From positions 480,001 to 544,000 of the forward strand of contig JAXGZN010000002.1 of the NCBI GenBank assembly GCA_040776945.1: DNA of 64,000 nucleotides, read 5' to 3'. The number at the start of each line of letters is the position of its first letter. The first letter of the stretch is position 1. A program made the translations under genes and the position numbers. Positions 2,304 to 28,420 of the stretch are shown in pieces. The notes beneath the pieces were generated by a model. It had not been told where the DNA came from and searched no databases. It worked only from the letters and a program-made list of their open reading frames with translations. Source of the DNA: Methanomassiliicoccaceae archaeon (GTDB lineage Archaea > Thermoplasmatota > Thermoplasmata > Methanomassiliicoccales > Methanomassiliicoccaceae).

Positions 2304-3428
2304 GTGTCGGATAGGCCTGACCCGTCGAACCAGTCGACGGAGGTTGAGGTCCGGGTCTGCAGGGACGGTGACGAGGCAGCCATAGTTCCGTTCCTCGAGG
2401 CCAACATGGGCTGGCCGGCCACCAGCACTGCCGTGGACCATATTGAGCATTGGAGATGGAAGTTCCTATCGAACCCCCTGGGCTTTCACTTGGTCTGCGT
2501 GGCCCTTCACGATGGAAAGGTCGTCTCCCATTCAGCCTCCATGCCCGTCAGGATGAAGATAGGGGACCATACGGTGATCGCGTCCCAGGGGGTGGACCTA
2601 TGCACGCACCCGGACTTCAGGGGCGCCGGCCTCATAGGCCGGACCATGGCCTGCCGCAACCAAATGAAGGACGTTCACAAGGTGGACCTTGATTTTGGTT
2701 TCCCAAACTCCGCATCGTACAAACTTAGCGTGACCAAGCAGGGCTTCCGCGACCTGGGCATCGTGATGCTCCAGCATCGCTACATCATCGACGGGGCGCA
2801 GTTCTTCCGAAAGGTCCGCTACGGCTCCATAAAAAGGTTTGGCCATTCCAGCTATCAGGTCCTCAGGCGCTCCCTCGGCCCTAGGATCGATGTAGGGGGA
2901 GGCATCACCATGGGCAGCGAGGCCGACCTGGGGAACGAGTTCGACGAGCTCTTCGAGAGGGCCAGCGGCTCTTTCGATATGATCATCGTTCGCGACAGCG
3001 GATATCTGAGGTGGAGATACTGCGACCCTCGGGCAGGCGACTTCGTCGTCCGCACAGTCAGGAACAAGGGCCGGCTGGCCGGCTACATGGTAATGCGCGA
3101 GGAGATCAAGGACGGATCCCGATTCCTAAACATCGTCGACTGCCTGGCCGACCCCCGCTCGCCCAACGCGGTCACGCTGCTGCTAAAGGACTGCATCTCC
3201 ATGGCCAAGAGCATGGACATCGAGACCGTGCTGTGCTGCCTGCCCGAGGGACACCCCTACGGCAAGAGGATGACCGAGATCGGCTTCTTGTCGCAGGTGA
3301 GGTTCACGGGGGAGCTGGAGATGAAGGTCATAGCTCTGGAGAGGGACAAGGGAGGTCCCCTGATGGCCGCTCTTACCAAGAAAGGCCTGCGCCCCCATAT
3401 CATGCTGGGGGACACGGACTGGGTATGA
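2304..3428 (+). CDS. GNAT family N-acetyltransferase (tandem GNAT folds)
   Basis: THPDFRGAGL acetyl-CoA motif, FGFPN, YLRWRY; start uncertain (ORF open from 2226). Confidence 0.8.
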   Translation: MSDRPDPSNQSTEVEVRVCRDGDEAAIVPFLEANMGWPATSTAVDHIEHWRWKFLSNPLGFHLVCVALHDGKVVSHSASMPVRMKIGDHTVIASQGVDLCTHPDFRGAGLIGRTMACRNQMKDVHKVDLDFGFPNSASYKLSVTKQGFRDLGIVMLQHRYIIDGAQFFRKVRYGSIKRFGHSSYQVLRRSLGPRIDVGGGITMGSEADLGNEFDELFERASGSFDMIIVRDSGYLRWRYCDPRAGDFVVRTVRNKGRLAGYMVMREEIKDGSRFLNIVDCLADPRSPNAVTLLLKDCISMAKSMDIETVLCCLPEGHPYGKRMTEIGFLSQVRFTGELEMKVIALERDKGGPLMAALTKKGLRPHIMLGDTDWV

Positions 3429-9198: not shown

Positions 9199-9340
9199 CG
9201 GATACGAGGTTCGTAGGCACGAGCAAAGGGGCCTAAACCCCGTTAACTGGCATCTAGGGCCGGCCCTTTTCGATGCAACATTGTAACAATCGTTTTAGAA
9301 AAAACTTTTGTCAGGCTTGAAATTTTAACCGGCGTTAAAC

Positions 9341-9375
9341 ATGGATGGTCCATCCATCCATAAAAGATTTTAATA
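9341..9375 (+). promoter_or_regulatory. Palindromic operator ATGGATGG-N5-CCATCCAT plus BRE/TATA of the corrinoid gene
   Basis: Inverted repeat 9341-9361 followed by AAAAGATTTTAATA. Confidence 0.65.
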
Positions 9376-9430: not shown

Positions 9431-10069
9431 ATGAGCAACGAGATACTTGACAAGTTAGCTGATGTCGTAGTGAAGGGGAAGATCAAGGAAGCCAAGCCCC
9501 TTGCAGAGCAGGCCTTGGCCGCTGGGATCGACCCCAAGGTAATCATCTTCGACAGCTTGAGCAAGGCTATGGGAGTTGTAGGCCAGAAGTACGAGAGCAA
9601 GCAGTACTTCCTGCCCCAGGTCCTTCTGTCCGCTCAGACCATGTACCAGGCCCTGGATGTCACCCTGCCCAAGCTGAAGGTTGACGCCAACGCTATTCCT
9701 GGAAAGGTCGTCATCGCTGTTGTTGAGGGCGATGTGCATGATATCGGAAAGAACATCGTGAAGGCCATGCTGACCGGTGCCGGCCTGACATTGTTCGACA
9801 TGGGCCGTGACGTCCCCGTCAAGAACCTGGTCGAGAAGGCCAAGTCCGAGGGCGCCCAGATCCTTGCCACCTCCACCCTGATGACCCCCACCCTGGCGGG
9901 CATGAAGGAGATCGAGAGGATCCTGAAGGAAGAGAACCTCAAGGGCAAGGTCAAGACCGTCATCGGCGGTGGTGCGACCTCCAAGGAGTTCTCCAACCAG
10001 ATCGGGGCCAACGGCTGGGCTTACGACGCTGTCGAGGCCGTGGCTGTTGTTCAGGGCCTGCTGAAGTAA
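9431..10069 (+). CDS. Methyltransferase cognate corrinoid protein (MtaC/MtbC/MttC family)
   Basis: EGDVHDIGKNIV B12-binding motif, four-helix cap, STLMT, GGG; GAGGAGG SD. Confidence 0.95.
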   Translation: MSNEILDKLADVVVKGKIKEAKPLAEQALAAGIDPKVIIFDSLSKAMGVVGQKYESKQYFLPQVLLSAQTMYQALDVTLPKLKVDANAIPGKVVIAVVEGDVHDIGKNIVKAMLTGAGLTLFDMGRDVPVKNLVEKAKSEGAQILATSTLMTPTLAGMKEIERILKEENLKGKVKTVIGGGATSKEFSNQIGANGWAYDAVEAVAVVQGLLK

Positions 10070-10175: not shown

Positions 10176-11063
10176 ATGTCAGATTATGGCGGTTTCCAAG
10201 TGAAAGTTACCAACAGCTCCAAGATGATGTATCCTCGAGATGGAATAACCAAGGGAGATATGGTGAGCTATTACTCAATGATATCCTCGGTAATGTTGCC
10301 CCATGTCCGGGACCGCCCGGTGTCCATGCTCCGCTATCCGAACGGGATCGATGGAGAGAGCTTCTTCCAGAAGCAGGTCCCGGACCATTTTCCCGAATGG
10401 TTCGCGACCGTCAAGGTCAGGAAGAAGGGTGGGCAGGTCATCCATGCGATGGTCCAGAAGGAGGCGGACCTAGCGTACCTTGCCAACTACGCTTGCATAA
10501 CGCCACACGTTTGGTTGAGCCGTGCAGGCTCTCTCGAGCGGCCGGACAGGTTGACGCTGGATATGGACCCCTTTGATGATGACTTCATCACAGTGAAGGA
10601 TGCCGCCCTTGCAGCAGCCTCCGAGCTGAGGCCGCTGGGCCTTAAACCCTTCGTTATGACCACTGGTTCTCGAGGTCTTCACGTGACCGTTCCTTTGGAC
10701 CGGACAGCTCCGTTCGGAGAGGCCCTATCCCTGGCCAAGGAGGTGGCGGACAGGATGGTCGAGGGGGACGATCGCTTCACGACCGAGCGATCGAAGGCGG
10801 ACCGCAATGGCAGGCTGTTGGTAGACGTTTTCCGAAATGCCTACGGGCAGACGGCGGTCCCGCCCTACGCGCTCCGGGCCCGAGACGGGGCTCCCGTAGC
10901 GACCCCTCTCCATTGGGAAGAACTGGAGGATCCCGGGCTAACCTCCAGACGGTTCAATATGCGTACGGTCTTTGAACGCCTTAGGGCCAGAGGGGACCCA
11001 TGGTCAGAGATAGAGCGCCACGCCAGCTCGATAAAGGATGCGGCGGACAGGATGAGAAAGTGA
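10176..11063 (+). CDS. Stand-alone LigD primase-polymerase domain (PrimPol/PolDom)
   Basis: TKGD..YY, RYPNG, FFQK, DMDP, TTGSRGLH, RNAYGQT, YALRAR.GAPVATPL.W motifs. Confidence 0.92.
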   Translation: MSDYGGFQVKVTNSSKMMYPRDGITKGDMVSYYSMISSVMLPHVRDRPVSMLRYPNGIDGESFFQKQVPDHFPEWFATVKVRKKGGQVIHAMVQKEADLAYLANYACITPHVWLSRAGSLERPDRLTLDMDPFDDDFITVKDAALAAASELRPLGLKPFVMTTGSRGLHVTVPLDRTAPFGEALSLAKEVADRMVEGDDRFTTERSKADRNGRLLVDVFRNAYGQTAVPPYALRARDGAPVATPLHWEELEDPGLTSRRFNMRTVFERLRARGDPWSEIERHASSIKDAADRMRK

Positions 11064-12538: not shown

Positions 12539-13075
12539 AAAAATGATACGCCCGGTCGATCTCTGATAATATCCTATCGCCCCCTGATAGGTTGAGGGGA
12601 TGCCCTCGCCCAAACCTTTTATTTTCGGTTTTTATCGACCTCGGCTCTATTCCTGAGGTATTGCGCATATTGAGGTCCAGTCAGACCCTTTTTGGATGCT
12701 GGGATCCGGAGCGATCAGGGGATTGGCATATGGAAGCGTGCTATCGTAAAAGGCCGTCTCCAAAGGATCATAAGGGTCCTTTCCACCACAATCAACAACG
12801 CAAAAAGCCCGGGAGGATCAAGGTCCAGCATTCGCTTCAACATCTGCATTTGAAGACATGGGTCAGAGCGCAACAGATAATGCTAATTTCTCAAATCCCT
12901 TACATGGGCCTCTTGCTTCTGACCGGCCGCTTCGATACAGTATATATTGCCTTCCCAGTGCATAGCTGGCTCGGGACCTACGGAACGACGATTGTTAATC
13001 CAGATTGACGAAAACTAATTATATGGTTACTTTAATTGCGAACCAAGCTATAAGGATGTAATAGGAGGACCAATC

Positions 13076-14074: not shown

Positions 14075-14155
14075 TCAGCCACTGGTGAGCCGATCAGAGG
14101 TTGGAAACACCTTCCCCCTTCCCATTTTTTATAAATCCCCTAGGTTATGTTCAAT

Positions 14156-18958: not shown

Positions 18959-19068
18959 GATAGGACCGGACCGGCCTAGACAGGTGACCTTGATATATTA
19001 TTATTATTGTGGCCATGGGCGGAGGATGGTTCGAGAGATTTATTATCGGAGGAGGTCATGGACATCTC

Positions 19069-20271
19069 ATGATTTTGGGATCCCGGCCCAAGCATTTGAC
19101 CTCCGACGGGGAGCGGGCGGTCGACCCTAAGGAGACCCTGGAAAGGATAGAGCCTTTGATGAAGAAGGCAGGCATTACCAGACTAGCTGACATCACAGAC
19201 CTGGATCGTATAGGGATACCTGTTTTCTCTGCGATCCGCCCTTCCGCCGAGAGCGGTGCGATCTCGGTCTACAACGGGAAAGGCATGACCAAGGAAGAGG
19301 CCATGGTCTCCGCCCTGATGGAAGGGTTCGAGAGATATTGCGCCGAGGTAAGAGGGTTCAATATCGTACGCAAGGGCGTAGTGGAGTTCATGGAGACCCA
19401 TAATGCCATCGATCCTTTGGACCTCATACTCACGCCGGCGTCAGCATTCCACCTGACGAAGCAGCCGATAGGCTGGGTCAAGGGCTTTGACCTTAACAGC
19501 ATGGAGGAGACCTGGGTCCCTGCAAGCGCGGTATTCCATCCCTACGTGTCAAGGCTCGACCTTGCCCTGTTCCGAACCTCCACAAACGGTCTCGCCTCTG
19601 GTAACAATTACGAGGAAGCGATCCTCCATGGCCTATGCGAGGTCATCGAGAGGGACGCATGGTCCTTGGCCGAAGGCCACCGAAAGATACGAGGTGATGT
19701 CGTCGCCCCGGATGGCGGAAATGTCAGTAAGATCATGGAGATGTTCACGTCCAAGGGGATCGAGATACACCTCAAGTACCTGACCACTGACATAGGGGTT
19801 CCCACCATTGCTGCGGCCGCTGATGATGTAGTTATGCAGGACCCTGCCCTGCTGACCCTTGGGATAGGCACGCATCTCGATCCTGAGGTGGCGGCAATCA
19901 AAGCGCTCCTTGAGGTCGCTCAAAGCAGGCTCACTCAGATCCATGGAGCAAGGGAGGACACTGTCCACGGGGAACATTCGAGGAAGCTCGGATACGAGCG
20001 AATGAAGCGGATCAACAAGATGTGGCTTAGCGATACGGGCCCAAAGGTGAAGCTCGATGAGATGCCGGTTCTGGACACCGATGACGTCTTCGATGACCTT
20101 CAGGTGGTCCGAAAGCAGCTGAACTCCCGTGGTTTCAAGAGCACAGTGATCGTCGACCTTACAAGAAAGGATCTTGGCATCCCGGTCGTAAGGGTTATCG
20201 TGCCTGGGCTGGAGGTCTTTGCCATAGATGAGGACCGGGTAGGGCCGAGAATGATGGGAGGTAGGGTCTGA
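19069..20271 (+). CDS. ycaO: YcaO McrA-glycine thioamidation protein (methanogenesis marker 1)
   Basis: ITDLDRIGIP, YNGKG, MEGFER, TNGLASGN, EVIERDA, EVAQSR, QIHGARED; adjacent tfuA. Confidence 0.95.
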   Translation: MILGSRPKHLTSDGERAVDPKETLERIEPLMKKAGITRLADITDLDRIGIPVFSAIRPSAESGAISVYNGKGMTKEEAMVSALMEGFERYCAEVRGFNIVRKGVVEFMETHNAIDPLDLILTPASAFHLTKQPIGWVKGFDLNSMEETWVPASAVFHPYVSRLDLALFRTSTNGLASGNNYEEAILHGLCEVIERDAWSLAEGHRKIRGDVVAPDGGNVSKIMEMFTSKGIEIHLKYLTTDIGVPTIAAAADDVVMQDPALLTLGIGTHLDPEVAAIKALLEVAQSRLTQIHGAREDTVHGEHSRKLGYERMKRINKMWLSDTGPKVKLDEMPVLDTDDVFDDLQVVRKQLNSRGFKSTVIVDLTRKDLGIPVVRVIVPGLEVFAIDEDRVGPRMMGGRV

Positions 20272-20912
20272 GGCCTGTAATCTATGTCGGCCCAAGCTTG
20301 GAGCATGAGGCCGCCATCGAGCTGCTCGACGCTGACTATCGGCCTCCGGTAAAGAGAGGGGACCTTGCCGCTTTGCCGGCCGATATCAGGACAGTTGGCA
20401 TAATCGACGGCGTGCTCCTGACCGATGCCGCCGTCGGCCACAGAGAGATACTAACGCTCCTGAGGAGAGGGGTCAAGGTACTGGGCGGCGGCAGCATGGG
20501 GGCCCTCAGGGCGGCCGAGCTCTCTGACATGGGGATGATCGGCGTAGGAAGGATATTCAAAGAATATTCTTCCGGCCGGATCAATGGCGATGACGAGGTC
20601 GTCCTGGCGTATGATCCTTTCAGTCTGAGGCCCCTGTCGGAACCGCTCATCAATCTCAGATTGAACATAGAGGCGGCCGCCGGTAGGGGCATTATCAGCG
20701 CGGAAGCCTCGTCAAGGCTCATAGATGCTCTAAAAAGGACGTATTATCCAAAAAGGACCTTTGAACGTCTCGATAAAATCGCGAGGGAATTATTGGAAAA
20801 AACCGAGTTCGAGGCATTTTCGTTTTTCTTGAAAAACGAGAGAATGGACCATAAGCGAAATGACGCGATTTTGCTAATAAAGGCCGTTAAGGATGAACCT
20901 CGTTTTTTTTGA
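20268..20912 (+). CDS. tfuA: TfuA McrA-glycine thioamidation protein (probable CTG start)
   Basis: VIYVGPSL, PPVKRGD, IIDG, HREI, SMGALRAAEL, DDEV motifs. Confidence 0.93.
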   Translation: MRPVIYVGPSLEHEAAIELLDADYRPPVKRGDLAALPADIRTVGIIDGVLLTDAAVGHREILTLLRRGVKVLGGGSMGALRAAELSDMGMIGVGRIFKEYSSGRINGDDEVVLAYDPFSLRPLSEPLINLRLNIEAAAGRGIISAEASSRLIDALKRTYYPKRTFERLDKIARELLEKTEFEAFSFFLKNERMDHKRNDAILLIKAVKDEPRFF

Positions 20913-20980
20913 AAAATTAACTCATGTTAAGAAAATTGCAGGAGGTCTGGCCGAACCTCAAAAATCACGATTGTTTACGT

Positions 20981-21014
20981 TGGTTGGATTATCCATCCAG
21001 CACCATGTTTATAT
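20981..21014 (+). promoter_or_regulatory. mcr promoter: TGGTTGG-N5-CCATCCA palindrome plus TATA (TTTATAT)
   Basis: Near-palindrome 20981-20999, TATA at 21008. Confidence 0.65.
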
Positions 21015-21157
21015 CTCTCTCTCTACTTACAGGGCAATGACAGGGGATTTGGTTTTCATCAGAAGGGAGGCACTCTCGGACGATGAAGGCCGTTCAACTT
21101 CTTACCCCGGCCGGGGGGACTCTGCCGGGCGAGGAAAAAATGATTGGAGGTAGAAAT

Positions 21158-22477
21158 TTGGCGAAATACAAGGACAAAATAGACTTGTATGACGACAGGG
21201 GTAAGCTTATTGAGAAGGATGTGCCCCTTGAAGCGATCAGCCCTCTGAACAACAACGCAATTAAGCGGATCGCATCCTTGGCCAAGAGGACCATCGCCGT
21301 GGACATGTCTGGACTTGAGAGGAGCCTCAAGACCGGGCGCGTCGGCGGCGGGTACATCAAGGGCAAGGAGATAGACGCTGCCGTTGTGGCCAATGCGGAT
21401 AAGTTGGCAAAGAGGGTCAAGGACATCCTGAAGGTCGACAAGGACGATGACACTGATGTCAAGGTCATCATGGACGGGAAGAGAATGATCGTCATGGTCC
21501 CGACCAACCGCGTCGACGCTGGTGTAGAGTACACCACTGGATTCACCGCAGCTGCCGCTGCGCTTACCCAGGCCGTCATCGATGAGTTCAACGTCGACAT
21601 GTTCCATGCGAACATGGTAAAGGGTGCTGTTTGGGGCAGATATCCCCAAAGCTTGAACTTCCTTGGATCCAACCTGAAGTCCATCCTGGAGGTTCCGCAG
21701 GTCAACGAGGGAGCCGGATATGCTCTCAGAAACATCATGGCAAACCATCTGGTCGCCTTGTCTGGTAAGAACTCGGTCAACGCTGCCGCGCTGTCCTCTA
21801 TCTTTGAGCAGACGGCGATGTTCGAGATGGGCGACGCCATCGGACCCTTCGAGAGGTACCACCTGCTGGGCCTGGCCTACCAAGGACTGAACGCGAACAA
21901 CATCGTCCTTGACCTGGTCAAGGAGAACGGCAAGACCGGAACCGTCGGTACCGTTGTCGAGTCCATCGTGGGCCGCGCCATTGAGGACAAGGTCATCAAG
22001 GTCAAGGAGAAGCTGCCCTCTGGATACAAGGTGTACACCACCAACGACTTCCCGCTGTGGAACGCCTACGCCGCCGCTGGTATGCTTGCGGCCAACATGG
22101 TGAACATCGGTGCTGCCAGGGCTTCCCAGGCCGTGCCTGCGACGACCCTGTACTACAACGACCTTATCGAGCACGAGACCGGCCTGCCTGGAGTCGACTT
22201 CGGCCGCGCCATGGGTGTCTGCGTCGGTATGTCCTTCTTCAGCCACTCTATCTACGGCGGTGGCGGACCTGGACTGTTCCACGGCAACCACGTCGTGACC
22301 AAGCACTCCAAGGGATTCGTCATCCCGTGCATCGCTGCGGCCTGTTCCCTGGATGCAGGGACTCAGTACTTCTCACCCGAGAGCACCTCTTCCCTTGTGA
22401 GGGATGTGTTCGGTGAAATACCTGAGTTCAAGGCTCCGTTGAAGGCGATTGGCAAGGAGGCCAAGAAACTGAAGTAA
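21158..22477 (+). CDS. mcrB: Methyl-coenzyme M reductase beta subunit
   Basis: [27 protein letters not shown]; TTG start with GGAGGT SD. Confidence 0.98.
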
Positions 22478-22497
22478 GAGGTGTGTGGTTAAGCTTG

Positions 22498-22920
22498 ATG
22501 ACAAGTACTAATGCCCCTGAGGCTGTCCCGCTGCCTGAGATCCTGATCTTTCCAAACAGGCTCCTCAAGGCCGAGACCACCGAGAAGCTCCTTAACAGGA
22601 TCTACGAGGTTCCCCATGTGAGGCAGGTCAACATCGCTGGCGAAGCTCTACCGGCGGTGCTGAGCTCCGGCCCCAACAAGGGACTGCCCAACGAACACCC
22701 TGAACGCAGGGTGATAACAGTGAAAGGCGAGCAGGTCGAACTTCGCCTGCTGGTAGGAAGAGTGTTCGTCGAGATCGATGACATCGACCATGTCCAGCGA
22801 GCGCTCGAGGAAATCGATGAGATATGCATCGAGATCCTCCCGTTCGGGTTCAACCTGGAAGTGGGCAGGTACTCGAAATACAAGCCGACCGTCACCGATT
22901 ACAAGAAATGCAAGAGGTAA
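22498..22920 (+). CDS. mcrD: MCR operon protein D
   Basis: [29 protein letters not shown]; lies between mcrB and mcrG. Confidence 0.95.
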
Positions 22921-22925
22921 TAATT

Positions 22926-23699
22926 ATGGCATACCAAGCTCAGTACTATCCTGGCAACAGCCAGATCGCCAAGAACAGGCGCCGGTACATGGACCCCTCC
23001 GAAAAGCTGAAGAAGCTCAGGGACGTGGCCATGGACGACGTCGTAAGGATTCTGGGCCACAGGGCTCCCGGAGAAGACTACAAGAGCATCCACCCCCCAC
23101 TGGAGGAGGGCAACGAGCCGGATGACTACGTCCGCAAGTTGGTCACCCCCATCGAGGGCGCCAAGAAGGGCGACAGGATCAGGTACGTTCAGTTTACCGA
23201 TTCGATCTACTTCGCCCCCATGGTCCCCTATCTGAGGGCCTGGATGTACATGACCAGGATGAGAGGCTTCGACACCGGAACCCTTTCTGGAAGACAGATC
23301 ATTGAGATGAGGGAGAGGGACCTTGAGAAGGCATCCAAGGAACTCATCGACAATGAGACCTTCGACCCTGCCAAGACCGGTATCAGGGGTGCGACCGTGC
23401 ACGGGCACGCTTGCAGGCTGGACGAGAACGGGCTGATGTTCGACGCCTGGCAGAGATACCGCTGGAACGCTAAGAAGGGCGAGGTCGAGTATGTTAAGGA
23501 CCAGGTCGCTCTTCCGCTGGACAAGCCCATCTCCGTGGGCAAGCCCCTGCCGGACGCTGAACTCAAAAAGATGACCACCATCTTCAGGGTAGATGGAGTT
23601 GACATGATTGACGACCCCGAGGTCATGGCCATGAACCTGAGGATACACAGGCTGAGGACCCTTTGCGGATTCCAGGCCTTCGCCCTTAAGGGGGAGTAA
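22926..23699 (+). CDS. mcrG: Methyl-coenzyme M reductase gamma subunit
   Basis: [40 protein letters not shown]. Confidence 0.98.
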
Positions 23700-23703
23700 A
23701 ACT

Positions 23704-25368
23704 ATGGCAAAAGAAAAGGACAAGTTGTTCCTGGATGCGATGAAGAAGAAGTTCAAGGAGGCCCCTACCGCGGTCAACACCAACTACTATACCTTTGGTG
23801 GCTGGAAGCAGTCCAAGAGGAAGAGGGAGTGGGTTGAGCAGGCCAACAAGATCGCCAAGGCGCGCGGCATACCGATGATGAACCAGGACATCGGTGTACC
23901 TCTGGGCCAGCGTGTGCTTATGCCTTATCAGCTTTCGCACACCGACATATACGCTGAGGCGGACGACCTGCACTTCATGAACAACGCTGCCATGCAGCAG
24001 TGCTGGGACGATATACGCAGGACCGTCATCTCCGGTATGGACACCGCGCACGCCGTCATCGAGAAGAGGCTGGGCAAGGAGGTCACTCCCGAGACCATCA
24101 ACTTCTATCTCGAGACCGTGAACCACGCGATGCCCGGCGGAGCCGTCGTGCAGGAGCACATGGCCGAGGTCAGCCCGGGTCTTACCGCGGACTGCTACGT
24201 GAAGGTCTTCTCCGGTGACGACGAGCTCCTCGACCAGATCGACAAGAGGTTCGTCATCGACATCAACAAGGAGTTCCCCAAGGACCAGGCGAAGCAGCTT
24301 AAGGAGGCCATCGGAAAGTCCCTTTGGCAGAAGGTCGCTTGCCCGACCCTCGTCGGCCGCGTTTGCGACGGCGGTACCATGTCCCGGTGGAGCGCCATGC
24401 AGATCTCGATGTCCTTCATCAGCGCCTACAGACTGGCCGCTGGTGAGGCCGCCATCGCTGACTTCGCGTTCGCCGCCAAGCACGCTTCCGTCGTAGAGAT
24501 GGGAACCATGATGCCCGCTAGGCGCGCAAGGGGCCCCAACGAGCCCGGTGGAATTCCCTTCGGGTTCCTGGCCGACATGTCCCAGTCTTTCCGTGTAAAG
24601 CCTGACGACCCCGCCAGGGCTGCTCTGGAGGTCGTTGCACTGGGCGCTGTCGTGAACGACCAGATCTATCTGGGCTCGTACATGTCCGGCGGAGTCGGCT
24701 TCACCCAGTACGCCACCGCGGCCTACACCGACGACATCCTGGAGGACTACACCTACTGGGCCGTCGACCACATCAAGTCCAAGTATGGCGGGCTGGTCAA
24801 GAGCAAGCCGTCCATGGACCTGATGGAGAAGCTCGGCACGGAGGTCAACACCTACGCTCTCGAGATGTATGAGAAGTACCCGGCCGCTATGGAGGCCCAC
24901 TTCGGTGGCTCCCAGCGTGCGACCGTCGCAGCCGCCGCCACTGGTATCGCTTGCGCGATGGCCACCGGCAACGCCGACTTCGGTGTCAACGGCTGGTACC
25001 TCTCCATGCTCCAGCACAAGGAAAGATGGGGACGCCTCGGGTTCTACGGGTTCGACCTGCAGGACCAGTGCGGTGCCGCCAACTCTCTGTCCTACAGGAG
25101 CGACGAGGGTCTGCCCTTCGAGCTAAGGGGTCCGAACTACCCGAACTACGCCATGAACGTCGGTCACCTGTCCGGCTATGGCGGCATCGCTTGCGCCGCT
25201 CACGTGGCCCGCGGCGACGCCTTCGCCTGCAGCCCGCTGATCAAGGTCGCGTTCGCCGACAAGAACCTGCCGTTCGACTTCGCCAACATCACGAAGGAGT
25301 TCGGCCGTGGCGCTCTCAGGGAGTTCATGCCCGCTGGCGAAAGGTCCCTGATCATCCCCGCCCAGTGA
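23704..25368 (+). CDS. mcrA: Methyl-coenzyme M reductase alpha subunit
   Basis: [61 protein letters not shown]. Confidence 0.99.
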
Positions 25369-27410: not shown

Positions 27411-28385
27411 TCAGATGTTCTGCTCCTTTCGGGCACGTGCGACGACCTCGAACATGCCCCCCTTCGTGATATCGACTATGCCGAACACCGCCACCGCCTC
27501 GTTATTCCTGATGATGGGGACCACGACCACCGGGACCCCTCGATAAGGGCCGTAAGGAGAAATCTTCCTTACCGCCGCGCTCCGCTTGAGCGCTTCCTCA
27601 AGCACTGGCCCTGTGAAATCGGTATCGACGATCTCACCATCCTCGCATCGGACCCCGCGATGGTTCTTGCTCCGCATAGTGACCGGCAGACGGCCCACTA
27701 GCTCATGCACCGCTAGAGCAAGGCACCGGAGGTCCTGTGCTTCGGTGTCCGCGCTTATAAGGCTGTTAGGGGTACAATCCCTCCAGCAAGGCCGAGGAGA
27801 ATCTCCCAGCGCCAAGGCGGCGGTGACCGCTCCCTTTTCTGCTATATCGTAAGAACTTGCGGTGCCGATGATGACCACATCGTTCTCTTCCAGTGTGAAC
27901 GCCGACCTAATGGGCGCCAACAACGATTGGTCAGGGTCCGAATAGTCCCCTGGGAACAGAAGCTTACCGCCGTTGACCACCAAGGTCGTGGCTCCCATGG
28001 CGCCCACCCGAACGGCCTCGTCCCTCTGCTCGTAACCTGTCCCGATGCGGTCGGCCATGCCCTTAACGTGGACCGCACAGTCCTGATCGGAGATCGTGAG
28101 GCCATCGATCCTCACGGGGCTTACCATTATCCCTGAGCTTCTGAAGTTCTTGACCCCTCTTTCGGTGAGCACCGCGCCTAGATTCGTGTTCTCAACAGAG
28201 CCTTCGCGTATCATCTTGTCAAGTATTGTCCTGGTGCTGCCTTCTCCGATCCCTAAAAGATGGGAAAGGGTCTTTCGTCCGATAGGTCCTCTACTATTAA
28301 TGACAGAGTAGGTCTTCCAAACATGGAACAGTGTGAACTTGGGATTCGGCCCATCACCTGAGTAAGCTTGGAACTTCAAGACCAT
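27411..28385 (-). CDS. HTH (DUF4443-like)-DUF2111 fusion, putative transcriptional regulator
   Basis: GPIGRKTLS..LGIGEGSTRT HTH, QRDEAV..GA.GATT, C-terminal RLPVTMRS..GVRCEDG..GPVLEE..GPYRGVPV; alternative start 28403. Confidence 0.8.
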   Translation of the reverse strand: MVLKFQAYSGDGPNPKFTLFHVWKTYSVINSRGPIGRKTLSHLLGIGEGSTRTILDKMIREGSVENTNLGAVLTERGVKNFRSSGIMVSPVRIDGLTISDQDCAVHVKGMADRIGTGYEQRDEAVRVGAMGATTLVVNGGKLLFPGDYSDPDQSLLAPIRSAFTLEENDVVIIGTASSYDIAEKGAVTAALALGDSPRPCWRDCTPNSLISADTEAQDLRCLALAVHELVGRLPVTMRSKNHRGVRCEDGEIVDTDFTGPVLEEALKRSAAVRKISPYGPYRGVPVVVVPIIRNNEAVAVFGIVDITKGGMFEVVARARKEQNI

Positions 28386-28391
28386 GCTTGC

Positions 28392-28420
28392 TGGATGGAG
28401 CATCCATCCTAAATATGTTT
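28392..28420 (-). promoter_or_regulatory. GGATGG-N5-CCATCC palindrome directly downstream of a TATA-like element of the HTH-DUF2111 gene
   Basis: Minus strand reads AAACATATTTAGGATGGATGCTCCATCCAGCAAGCATG. Confidence 0.6.

Follow-up and report, generated by a model that had tools for sequence, protein, structure and literature searches.

A conserved palindromic site at the mcr and corrinoid-protein promoters of a Methanomassiliicoccaceae archaeon and its probable winged-helix regulator encoded near mcr

Introduction

SurR and Tgr are archaeal transcriptional regulators whose action depends on the position of their binding sites. Msr, which acts at the mtaCB operons of Methanosarcina, and Ptr2 of Methanocaldococcus act upstream of the core promoters of methyltransferase and redox genes; to our knowledge, neither controls mcr, which encodes the key enzyme of methane formation, and we are aware of barely any direct transcriptional regulator of mcr. 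Methanomassiliicoccales, the order to which the DNA analysed here belongs, are methanogens of guts and anaerobic digesters. For cobalamin genes, Rodionov et al. 2003 (J Biol Chem) reportedly proposed a "CBL-box" read by a hypothetical archaeal B12 regulator. A close parallel to the present locus is TrmBL1, for which activation from sites upstream of the promoter and repression from downstream sites have been shown (PMC4706686); in vitro, 9/9 downstream sites were repressed and 2/3 upstream sites were activated.

The locus described here resembles TrmBL1 (PMC4706686) in that one palindromic site is found in two geometries, either downstream of or overlapping the TATA box or upstream of BRE/TATA. 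However, the candidate regulator is unrelated to TrmBL1, SurR, and Tgr, has no TrmB Pfam match, and is predicted to concern methanogenesis rather than sugar or sulfur metabolism. It also differs from Msr and Ptr2, which belong to other protein families and recognize other sites.

Results

The window, i.e., the whole stretch of DNA that was analysed (64,000 nucleotides; G000:C2:480001-544000), comes from a genome of 2.17 Mb in two contigs with 59.6% G+C, for which a crude codon-usage gene model (84% coding) was the basis for intergenic calls. A preliminary description of this DNA had reported a shared inverted repeat 5' of mcrB and of a corrinoid-protein gene (here corr1), and its letters were borne out at both promoters: GGTTGG-ATTAT-CCATCC at 20982-20998 with TTTATA from 21008, and GGATGG-TCCAT-CCATCC at 9343-9359 with TTTAAT from 9369. 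The common offset of 10 also held, corresponding to 9 intervening bases between the end of the site and the start of the TATA box at each promoter, and the two sites are indeed copies of one conserved operator placed at an equal distance 5' of two TATA boxes. A third exact copy within the window, GGATGG-AGCAT-CCATCC at 28393-28409, was absent from that description.

The occurrence of GGWTGG-N5-CCATCC is non-random. With at most one mismatch allowed, the window contains 7 strand-matches compared with 1.71 +/- 1.67 expected, a count reached in 0/100 shuffles. Genome-wide (2.17 Mb), five exact loci were found, 5/5 of them intergenic, and a scan of spacings from N0 to N15 over the whole genome gave 6 registers at N5, the other 15 spacings yielding 0-3 apiece. 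While the exact registers were intergenic in 6/6 cases, one-mismatch (4/29) and two-mismatch (62/375) matches across the genome were intergenic at the background rate. A control with the reversed pattern gave 0 matches, and the hexamer CCATCC alone was not enriched (62 observed, 71 expected). One single-mismatch match, GGTTGGAAACACCTTCC at 14099-14115 of the window, sits in the interval that separates mtaA from a convergent gene, 3' of both, and was set aside as probably due to chance.

The five exact loci form a small and coherent target set, comprising mcrBDGA, corr1, a second corrinoid gene (corr2), an operon encoding a Zn-dependent dehydrogenase and a TrpD-like protein (ADH operon), and the start of a gene encoding a winged-helix (wHTH)-DUF4443-DUF2111 protein, hereafter the regulator (Table 1). 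A weight matrix derived from 39 sites, taken from this genome and from relatives, scored the five sites at 24.7-34.4 bits and the next match in this genome, inside a gene, at 20.4 bits, a gap that is partly circular because the five sites were included in the matrix. The preliminary description had anticipated matches at mta, mtm, mtb, and hdr promoters, an expectation that the genome-wide matrix scan did not bear out; no strong matrix site was found at the mta, mtm, mtb, mtt, or hdr operons of this genome. In three relatives, a further site lies 5' of an MtaA-like URO-D gene.

Table 1. Coordinates of the operators, promoter elements, and genes (positions are those of the window unless a contig is named)
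Feature	Position	Strand	Remarks
corr1 operator T-GGATGG-TCCAT-CCATCC-A	9342..9360		Read in sequence; conserved in genus
Probable corr1 TATA box TTTTAATA	9368..9375	+	Read in sequence, aligned with relatives
corr1 corrinoid-protein gene	9431..10069	+	Pfam B12-binding and B12-binding_2; NCBIfam
mcrB-promoter operator T-GGTTGG-ATTAT-CCATCC-A	20981..20999		Read in sequence; exact pattern match; conserved in relatives
mcr TATA box TTTATATC	21008..21015	+	Begins 9 nt past operator; same offset in relatives
mcrBDGA operon	21158..25368	+	Pfam MCR_beta, MCR_D, MCR_gamma, MCR_alpha
mcrB	21158-22477	+	TTG start behind GGAGGT ribosome-binding site
mcrD	22483-22920	+	
mcrG	within 22824-23699	+	
mcrA	23704-25368	+	
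Regulator gene	27411..28385	-	324 aa from ATG 28385; longest ORF starts 28403
Own-promoter operator	28393..28409		GGATGG-ATGCT-CCATCC on gene strand; kept before ATG in orthologues
Regulator TATA-like box CATATTTA	28410..28417	-	Directly 5' of operator
corr2 site	C1:405261		Second corrinoid gene, then URO-D-family methyltransferase gene
ADH-operon site	C1:346455		Zn-dependent dehydrogenase and TrpD-like operon; perfect 10-1-10 palindrome
Sibling sites	G000:C2:142089, 152804, 437198, 450863, 458387, 890390; C1:346384		Outside window
Sibling sites in gene-poor stretches	G000:C1:453845, C2:747793		

The ADH operon has two operators (L001 = G000:C1:343500-349500, positions 2880-2976). The first reads AGAGTTGGAT-ATATA-ATCCAACTCT. 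The second is found 74 nt further downstream, over the expected start of transcription, and forms a perfect palindrome, GGTTGGATGG-A-CCATCCAACC; the site lies about 24 nt after a TATA-like box, GATATATAC. At corr1, the operator GGATGG-TCCAT-CCATCC is followed after 9 nt by TTTAATAC and can also be read as the palindrome ATGGATGG-T-CCATCCAT, centred at 9349; an alternative A/T-rich box, ATAAAAG (9360-9366), comes immediately after the operator. The corr1 product is MtbC/MtgC/MtaC-like, scoring below every equivalog cut-off (NCBIfam).

TATA boxes were assigned by sequence and by the starts of RNA-library contigs alone. Over mcr, contigs from three studies have their first position at 21048, 21050, and 21058, and one contig (9417-10071) covers corr1; such contigs give neither true transcription starts nor expression levels, and low or absent cover is uninformative. 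As the contigs start 33-50 nt past the TATA starts, they provide a weak hint that the operators lie 5' of transcribed regions. Just 5' of mcrB, cover in the deepest run is about 100-fold below that of mcr. The genes ycaO and tfuA (window 19009-20912), which we take to be the pair required for McrA thioglycine modification, end 70 nt before the mcrB operator, and their RNA-library cover, far lower than that of mcr, is consistent with a separate mcr promoter. Directly 3' of corr1 lies an odd neighbour, a LigD primase-polymerase gene (window 10176-11063; full-length domain, E 1e-82); since the corr1 contig ends at 10071, the two genes seem not to be co-transcribed in that run.

The mcrB promoters of 20 genomes of the family, 17 of them with the regulator, were compared, together with 12 genomes from families f2-f6 and 8 from family f7. 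Inspection of relatives, which the preliminary description had suggested as a check, showed the motif to be conserved in 13/17 regulator-bearing family genomes, where GGNTGG-N5-CCAWCC is followed after 8-9 nt by TTTATAT or TTATAT. Seven kinds of spacer occur in these 13 genomes (ATTAT, TGTAT, TTCAT, TTAAT, ATGAA, ATGCT, and ATAAT). Upstream of mcrB in f2-f6, a GGWTGG-N5-CCATCC-type pattern was present in 10/12 genomes and TGGAT-N5-ATCCA in 12/12, with the site 8-10 nt before TTATAT or TTATAA. The corr1 site is kept 72-73 nt 5' of the ATG in 6/6 other regulator-bearing genomes of the genus, and the corr2 site is present in nine orthologues from two genera, with varied spacers in both cases. Half-sites and distance to the TATA box are thus conserved, and the spacer is variable, at mcrB, both corrinoid genes, and the regulator's own promoter.

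Conservation at mcrB has its limits. In the four genomes of genus g2, the regulator is present, only the left half-site is found at mcrB, and regulator and mcrB are unlinked. In f7, no palindrome was found at mcrB in 8/8 genomes, although in 7/8 the regulator nonetheless adjoins mcr; in two f7 genomes, one half-site, GGATGG or CCATCC, stands alone 1-3 nt 5' of the mcrB TATA box. The f7 regulator is about 40% identical, and its own site, TGGAT-N9-ATCCA, stands right before the ATG in 8/8 genomes (L111-L118, L131-L138).

G021, G029, and G054, which belong to the same genus and are 99% complete (G054 being a single contig), had no DUF2111 match and retain only a short paralogue of the regulator. 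GGWTGG-N5-CCATCC-type matches number 0-2 in these three genomes versus 3-8 in seven regulator-bearing genomes of the genus. At their mcrB, the palindrome is lost, leaving only ...ATCCAAC and TTTATAT, and at corr1, the protein of which is 82-84% identical, ATAAAAGAC-TATATAAT is kept and the palindrome is lost, so that both promoters retain their TATA boxes. They still carry 11-16 simple N5 sites per genome. Their promoters are near-identical, so the co-loss probably reflects one clade and one evolutionary event. That a single factor serves mcrBDGA and the corrinoid genes, as the preliminary description had supposed, is supported by the conserved half-sites, the fixed TATA distance, the site at the mcr-linked regulator gene, and this co-loss.

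The regulator gene starts about 3 kb downstream of mcrA and is convergent with mcr. Pfam assigns its product a winged helix (PH0730-like_N / CggR_N), DUF4443, and DUF2111: the PH0730-like winged helix (PF22167) scored 33.0 bits against a cut-off of 30.2 at residues 38-85 of the 330-aa ORF, DUF4443 (PF14544) scored 94.3 bits, and DUF2111 (PF09884) scored 112.1 bits against a cut-off of 27 over its full length (model positions 1-83). The N-terminal DNA-binding domain also resembles CggR_N of the CggR/SorC regulators, scoring 23.4 bits where Pfam sets its cut-off at 30. The overall plan, in which an alpha/beta sensor domain comes after the winged helix, is reminiscent of IclR. However, no IclR (HTH_IclR or effector domain) or SorC effector Pfam domain was found in the regulator at E <= 0.001, nor did it match the Pfam AsnC-type HTH and RAM domains of Lrp/AsnC (Ptr2-like) proteins. 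Judged by these profiles, the regulator is not a member of the TrmB, Lrp/AsnC, or IclR families.

The closest protein of solved structure is PH0730 of Pyrococcus horikoshii (2p8t), which matched residues 12-192 by phmmer (E 9.2e-12) and was the best Foldseek match (E 6.1e-11; TM 0.77, target-normalised) to the AlphaFold2 model of the regulator (mean pLDDT 82). Weaker Foldseek matches were IclR-type regulators (TM 0.18-0.25), GAF domains, and the CggR DNA-binding domain 7oyk. PH0730, a structural-genomics protein, shares the winged helix and DUF4443 but lacks the C-terminal DUF2111, the predicted dimer interface of the regulator, and its depositors gave no function or DNA site. The order of domains, winged helix then alpha/beta, makes the regulator look like a ligand-sensing DNA binder. 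Modelled as a homodimer, it scored 0.55 compared with 0.00 for the best control, a mark reached by 20/30 proteins solved as homodimers and 1/23 solved as monomers; at least 32% of contacts were common to runs, partner pLDDT was at least 76, and the interface lay in DUF2111 (residues 209-322). This model agrees with, and so lends support to, binding of a site with dyad symmetry.

Orthologues of the regulator were found in 119/121 genomes of the order. Among genomes with both genes on one contig, no more than 15 kb separates the regulator from mcrB in 79/84 (median, 6.3 kb), a count that excludes 24 further genomes in which the two are on different contigs. The orthologues go by no public name more specific than "DUF2111 domain-containing protein" or "predicted transcriptional regulator," and no assigned function for DUF2111, DUF4443, or the PH0730-like family was found in the literature and public sources searched; neither DUF2111 nor DUF4443 is mentioned in any paper of that literature. 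At the regulator gene, the TATA-like box stands directly 5' of the operator, which therefore sits 3' of the TATA box and 5' of a leaderless ATG, and this order of TATA, operator, and ATG is the same at the regulator genes of relatives. The own-promoter site was found 3-8 nt 5' of the ATG in 11/12 f2-f6 genomes and, among close relatives, at 10/11 regulator loci with upstream DNA to inspect, where seven copies are exact and three carry one mismatch. RNA-library depth over the regulator gene (0.3-10) was too low for any inference.

The consensus of the operators at mcr and its companion loci is a doubled site, TGGATGGAT-N-ATCCATCCA, built of inverted GGAT/ATCC units with a 4-nt repeat. Because these units recur every 4 nt, doubled sites also match TGGAT-N5-ATCCA, and N1, N5, and N9 registers between units are all compatible with the sequence. 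At the mcrB promoter, GGWTGG-N5-CCATCC is the register that holds the fixed TATA distance; the minimal TGGWT-N9-AWCCA was discarded as unspecific (6 matches, 4 intergenic).

TGGAT-N5-ATCCA nevertheless marks a sibling class. It has 14 sites in this genome, all intergenic (other spacings, 0-3, save N0 with 8), of which 9 are not of the doubled type and read (A)GTTGGAT-N5-ATCCAAC(T) with an A/T-rich N5. Seven of these sibling sites are located 5' of a btuFCD-like transporter, a cbi operon, cobA, cbiMNQO, the cbiX/hemA interval, an unknown gene, and the distal upstream region of the ADH operon, usually over or just past the TATA box, i.e., in repressor geometry. The cobalamin riboswitch (RF00174) gave 0 matches in the whole genome compared with matches in 7/14 control genomes, and no Rfam family reached its gathering score in window positions 8800-29000. 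The sibling palindrome has the look of a cobalamin regulon run at the DNA level in a genome free of B12 riboswitches. A gene for a Fur-family regulator ends 65 nt before the cbiMNQO N5 site (L022 = G000:C2:887001-894000, positions 2906-3325).

Every one of the 121 genomes sampled from the order was enriched in TGGAT-N5-ATCCA (4-26 each versus 0-3 for the reversed control). The same palindrome was also enriched in families f24 and f31 (5-24 per genome versus 0-4 in the control), where no DUF4443 was found, so the generic N5 palindrome is not diagnostic of DUF4443 proteins. Its persistence without the DUF2111 regulator indicates that another factor reads a very similar word. The short paralogue, encoded elsewhere in the genome, consists of a winged helix and DUF4443 (194 aa), is 39% identical to the regulator, and has a near-identical recognition helix (GVGEGSMRT versus GIGEGSTRT in the comparison of regulator and short paralogue). 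As a candidate reader of the cobalamin-type sites, the paralogue was not retained: no site was found 5' of its gene in this genome, and the assignment would be speculative.

The sibling TTGGAT-N5-ATCCAA sites resemble the CBL-box in being a DNA operator, with no riboswitch, before archaeal cobalamin synthesis or transport genes, and the two may correspond to each other. The operators of main interest here differ from the CBL-box in that they are of the doubled class and lie at mcr and corrinoid-protein genes rather than at B12 synthesis genes. No archaeal B12 DNA operator or CBL-box was found in the literature searched, as judged by titles and abstracts, and a search linking Methanomassiliicoccus, cobalamin, and a transcription factor returned nothing relevant.

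Discussion

We consider it reasonably probable (about 60%) that T-GGWTGG-N5-CCAWCC-A (17-19 bp) is a transcription factor operator, the cognate factor of which is most likely the neighbouring winged-helix-DUF4443-DUF2111 protein, acting as a dimer and co-regulating MCR and the corrinoid genes. Comparative genomics makes the pairing of this regulator with the site the most likely one. The regulator would bind the palindrome as a homodimer held together by DUF2111; at its own promoter, the site between TATA and the leaderless start would provide an autorepression geometry, and the sites 9 nt 5' of TATA at mcrBDGA and the corrinoid genes would couple MCR to the synthesis of corrinoid methyl carriers. 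The protein is predicted to work like known archaeal one-component regulators that control their own gene through a palindromic operator and whose effect depends on the position of the site.

The same site is found in two geometries, 5' of TATA at mcrB, corr1, and corr2 and past TATA at the regulator gene and the ADH operon. The latter arrangement, between TATA and start, is where archaeal repressors classically bind. Bound upstream at mcrB, corr1, and corr2, the regulator would most likely aid recruitment of TBP/TFB, and activation is our preferred, most likely reading there, to judge from site geometry alone. On that geometry, repression is equally possible, as only 9 nt lie between the end of the site and TATA, which places the site against the expected BRE. 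The same regulator and sites might therefore serve purely for repression of mcr and the corrinoid genes, with the bound protein occluding BRE/TFB until released by an effector, a possibility that we regard as doubtful but serious. The 9 nt between site and TATA, with the outer half-site abutting the expected BRE, would suit it, as would the clear repressor position at the own promoter and the ADH operon, and in regulator-less relatives the same TATA box would seem to drive mcr with no site in place. However, the corr1 box of those relatives is closer to consensus, with TATATAAT in place of TTTTAATA/TTTATTAT, which fits the loss of an activator and is suggestive only, and a position upstream of BRE/TATA is the activating arrangement of TrmBL1 (PMC4706686).

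The operator could also be real but read by another factor, either the short paralogue or the factor of the cobalamin sites, with the DUF2111 gene as just one of the targets. The TGGAT half-site core is common to nine further N5 sites, mostly at cbi, cbiMNQO, btuFCD-like, cobA, and hemA/cbiX genes, which persist at 11-16 per genome in the DUF2111-less relatives, and the paralogue is 39% identical with nearly the same helix. Nevertheless, it is precisely in the three DUF2111-less genomes, all of which retain the paralogue, that the doubled sites at mcrB and corr1 vanish; furthermore, the DUF2111 gene and not the paralogue is syntenic with mcr, and the paralogue has no upstream site in this genome. 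We consider reading by another factor rather unlikely. That the sites have no function, being due to chance or a relic of duplicated promoters of paralogous corrinoid genes, is very improbable. The motif was defined post hoc, and the corrinoid promoters are alike 3' of the site (ATAAAAGAT..TTAA versus ATAACAATCATTAA), a likeness from which shared ancestry of these promoters may be suspected. Yet the corrinoid genes have no paralogous relationship to mcrB, the regulator gene, or the ADH operon, exact sites are all intergenic and mismatched ones are so at the background rate, enrichment is confined to one spacing, and half-sites are conserved over seven families with varying spacers.

The preferred reading, in which the DUF2111 protein controls MCR and the corrinoid genes from the doubled palindrome, offers a concrete pair of a 17-19 bp operator and one particular protein, so far uncharacterised, whose gene is a few kilobases away from mcr, and this newly predicted pair is of interest because its main target is mcr. 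The small predicted regulon would couple MCR to corrinoid methyl carriers, and the three regulator-less genomes provide a natural knockout clade for comparison. A wider scheme, tentative and on balance unlikely, would have paired paralogous winged-helix/DUF4443 sensors read one GGAT-type half-site in two architectures: the DUF2111 form would be the master regulator of MCR and corrinoid carriers on the doubled palindrome, and the short form would govern the cobalamin regulon on the N5 palindrome. If this were true, the short paralogue would be an archaeal stand-in for the B12 riboswitch, MCR output would be tied to corrinoid supply, DUF2111, DUF4443, and PH0730 would gain their first functions, and the first direct mcr regulator in Methanomassiliicoccales would have been named.

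A second word, WAACAATCG, recurs in the same neighbourhood, at window positions 20968-20976 (-), 9284-9292 (+), and 12989-12997 (-) and, outside the window, at G000:C2:342447 and 672049 and C1:943235. It adjoins the mcrB operator, lies 50 nt 5' of the corr1 operator, and also precedes mtaA, by 79 nt, and a further MtaA-like gene, by 22 nt. The form TAACAAT[CT]G has five matches in the genome, all intergenic, and the word recurs at mcrB and regulator promoters in other families; an additional factor may bind there.
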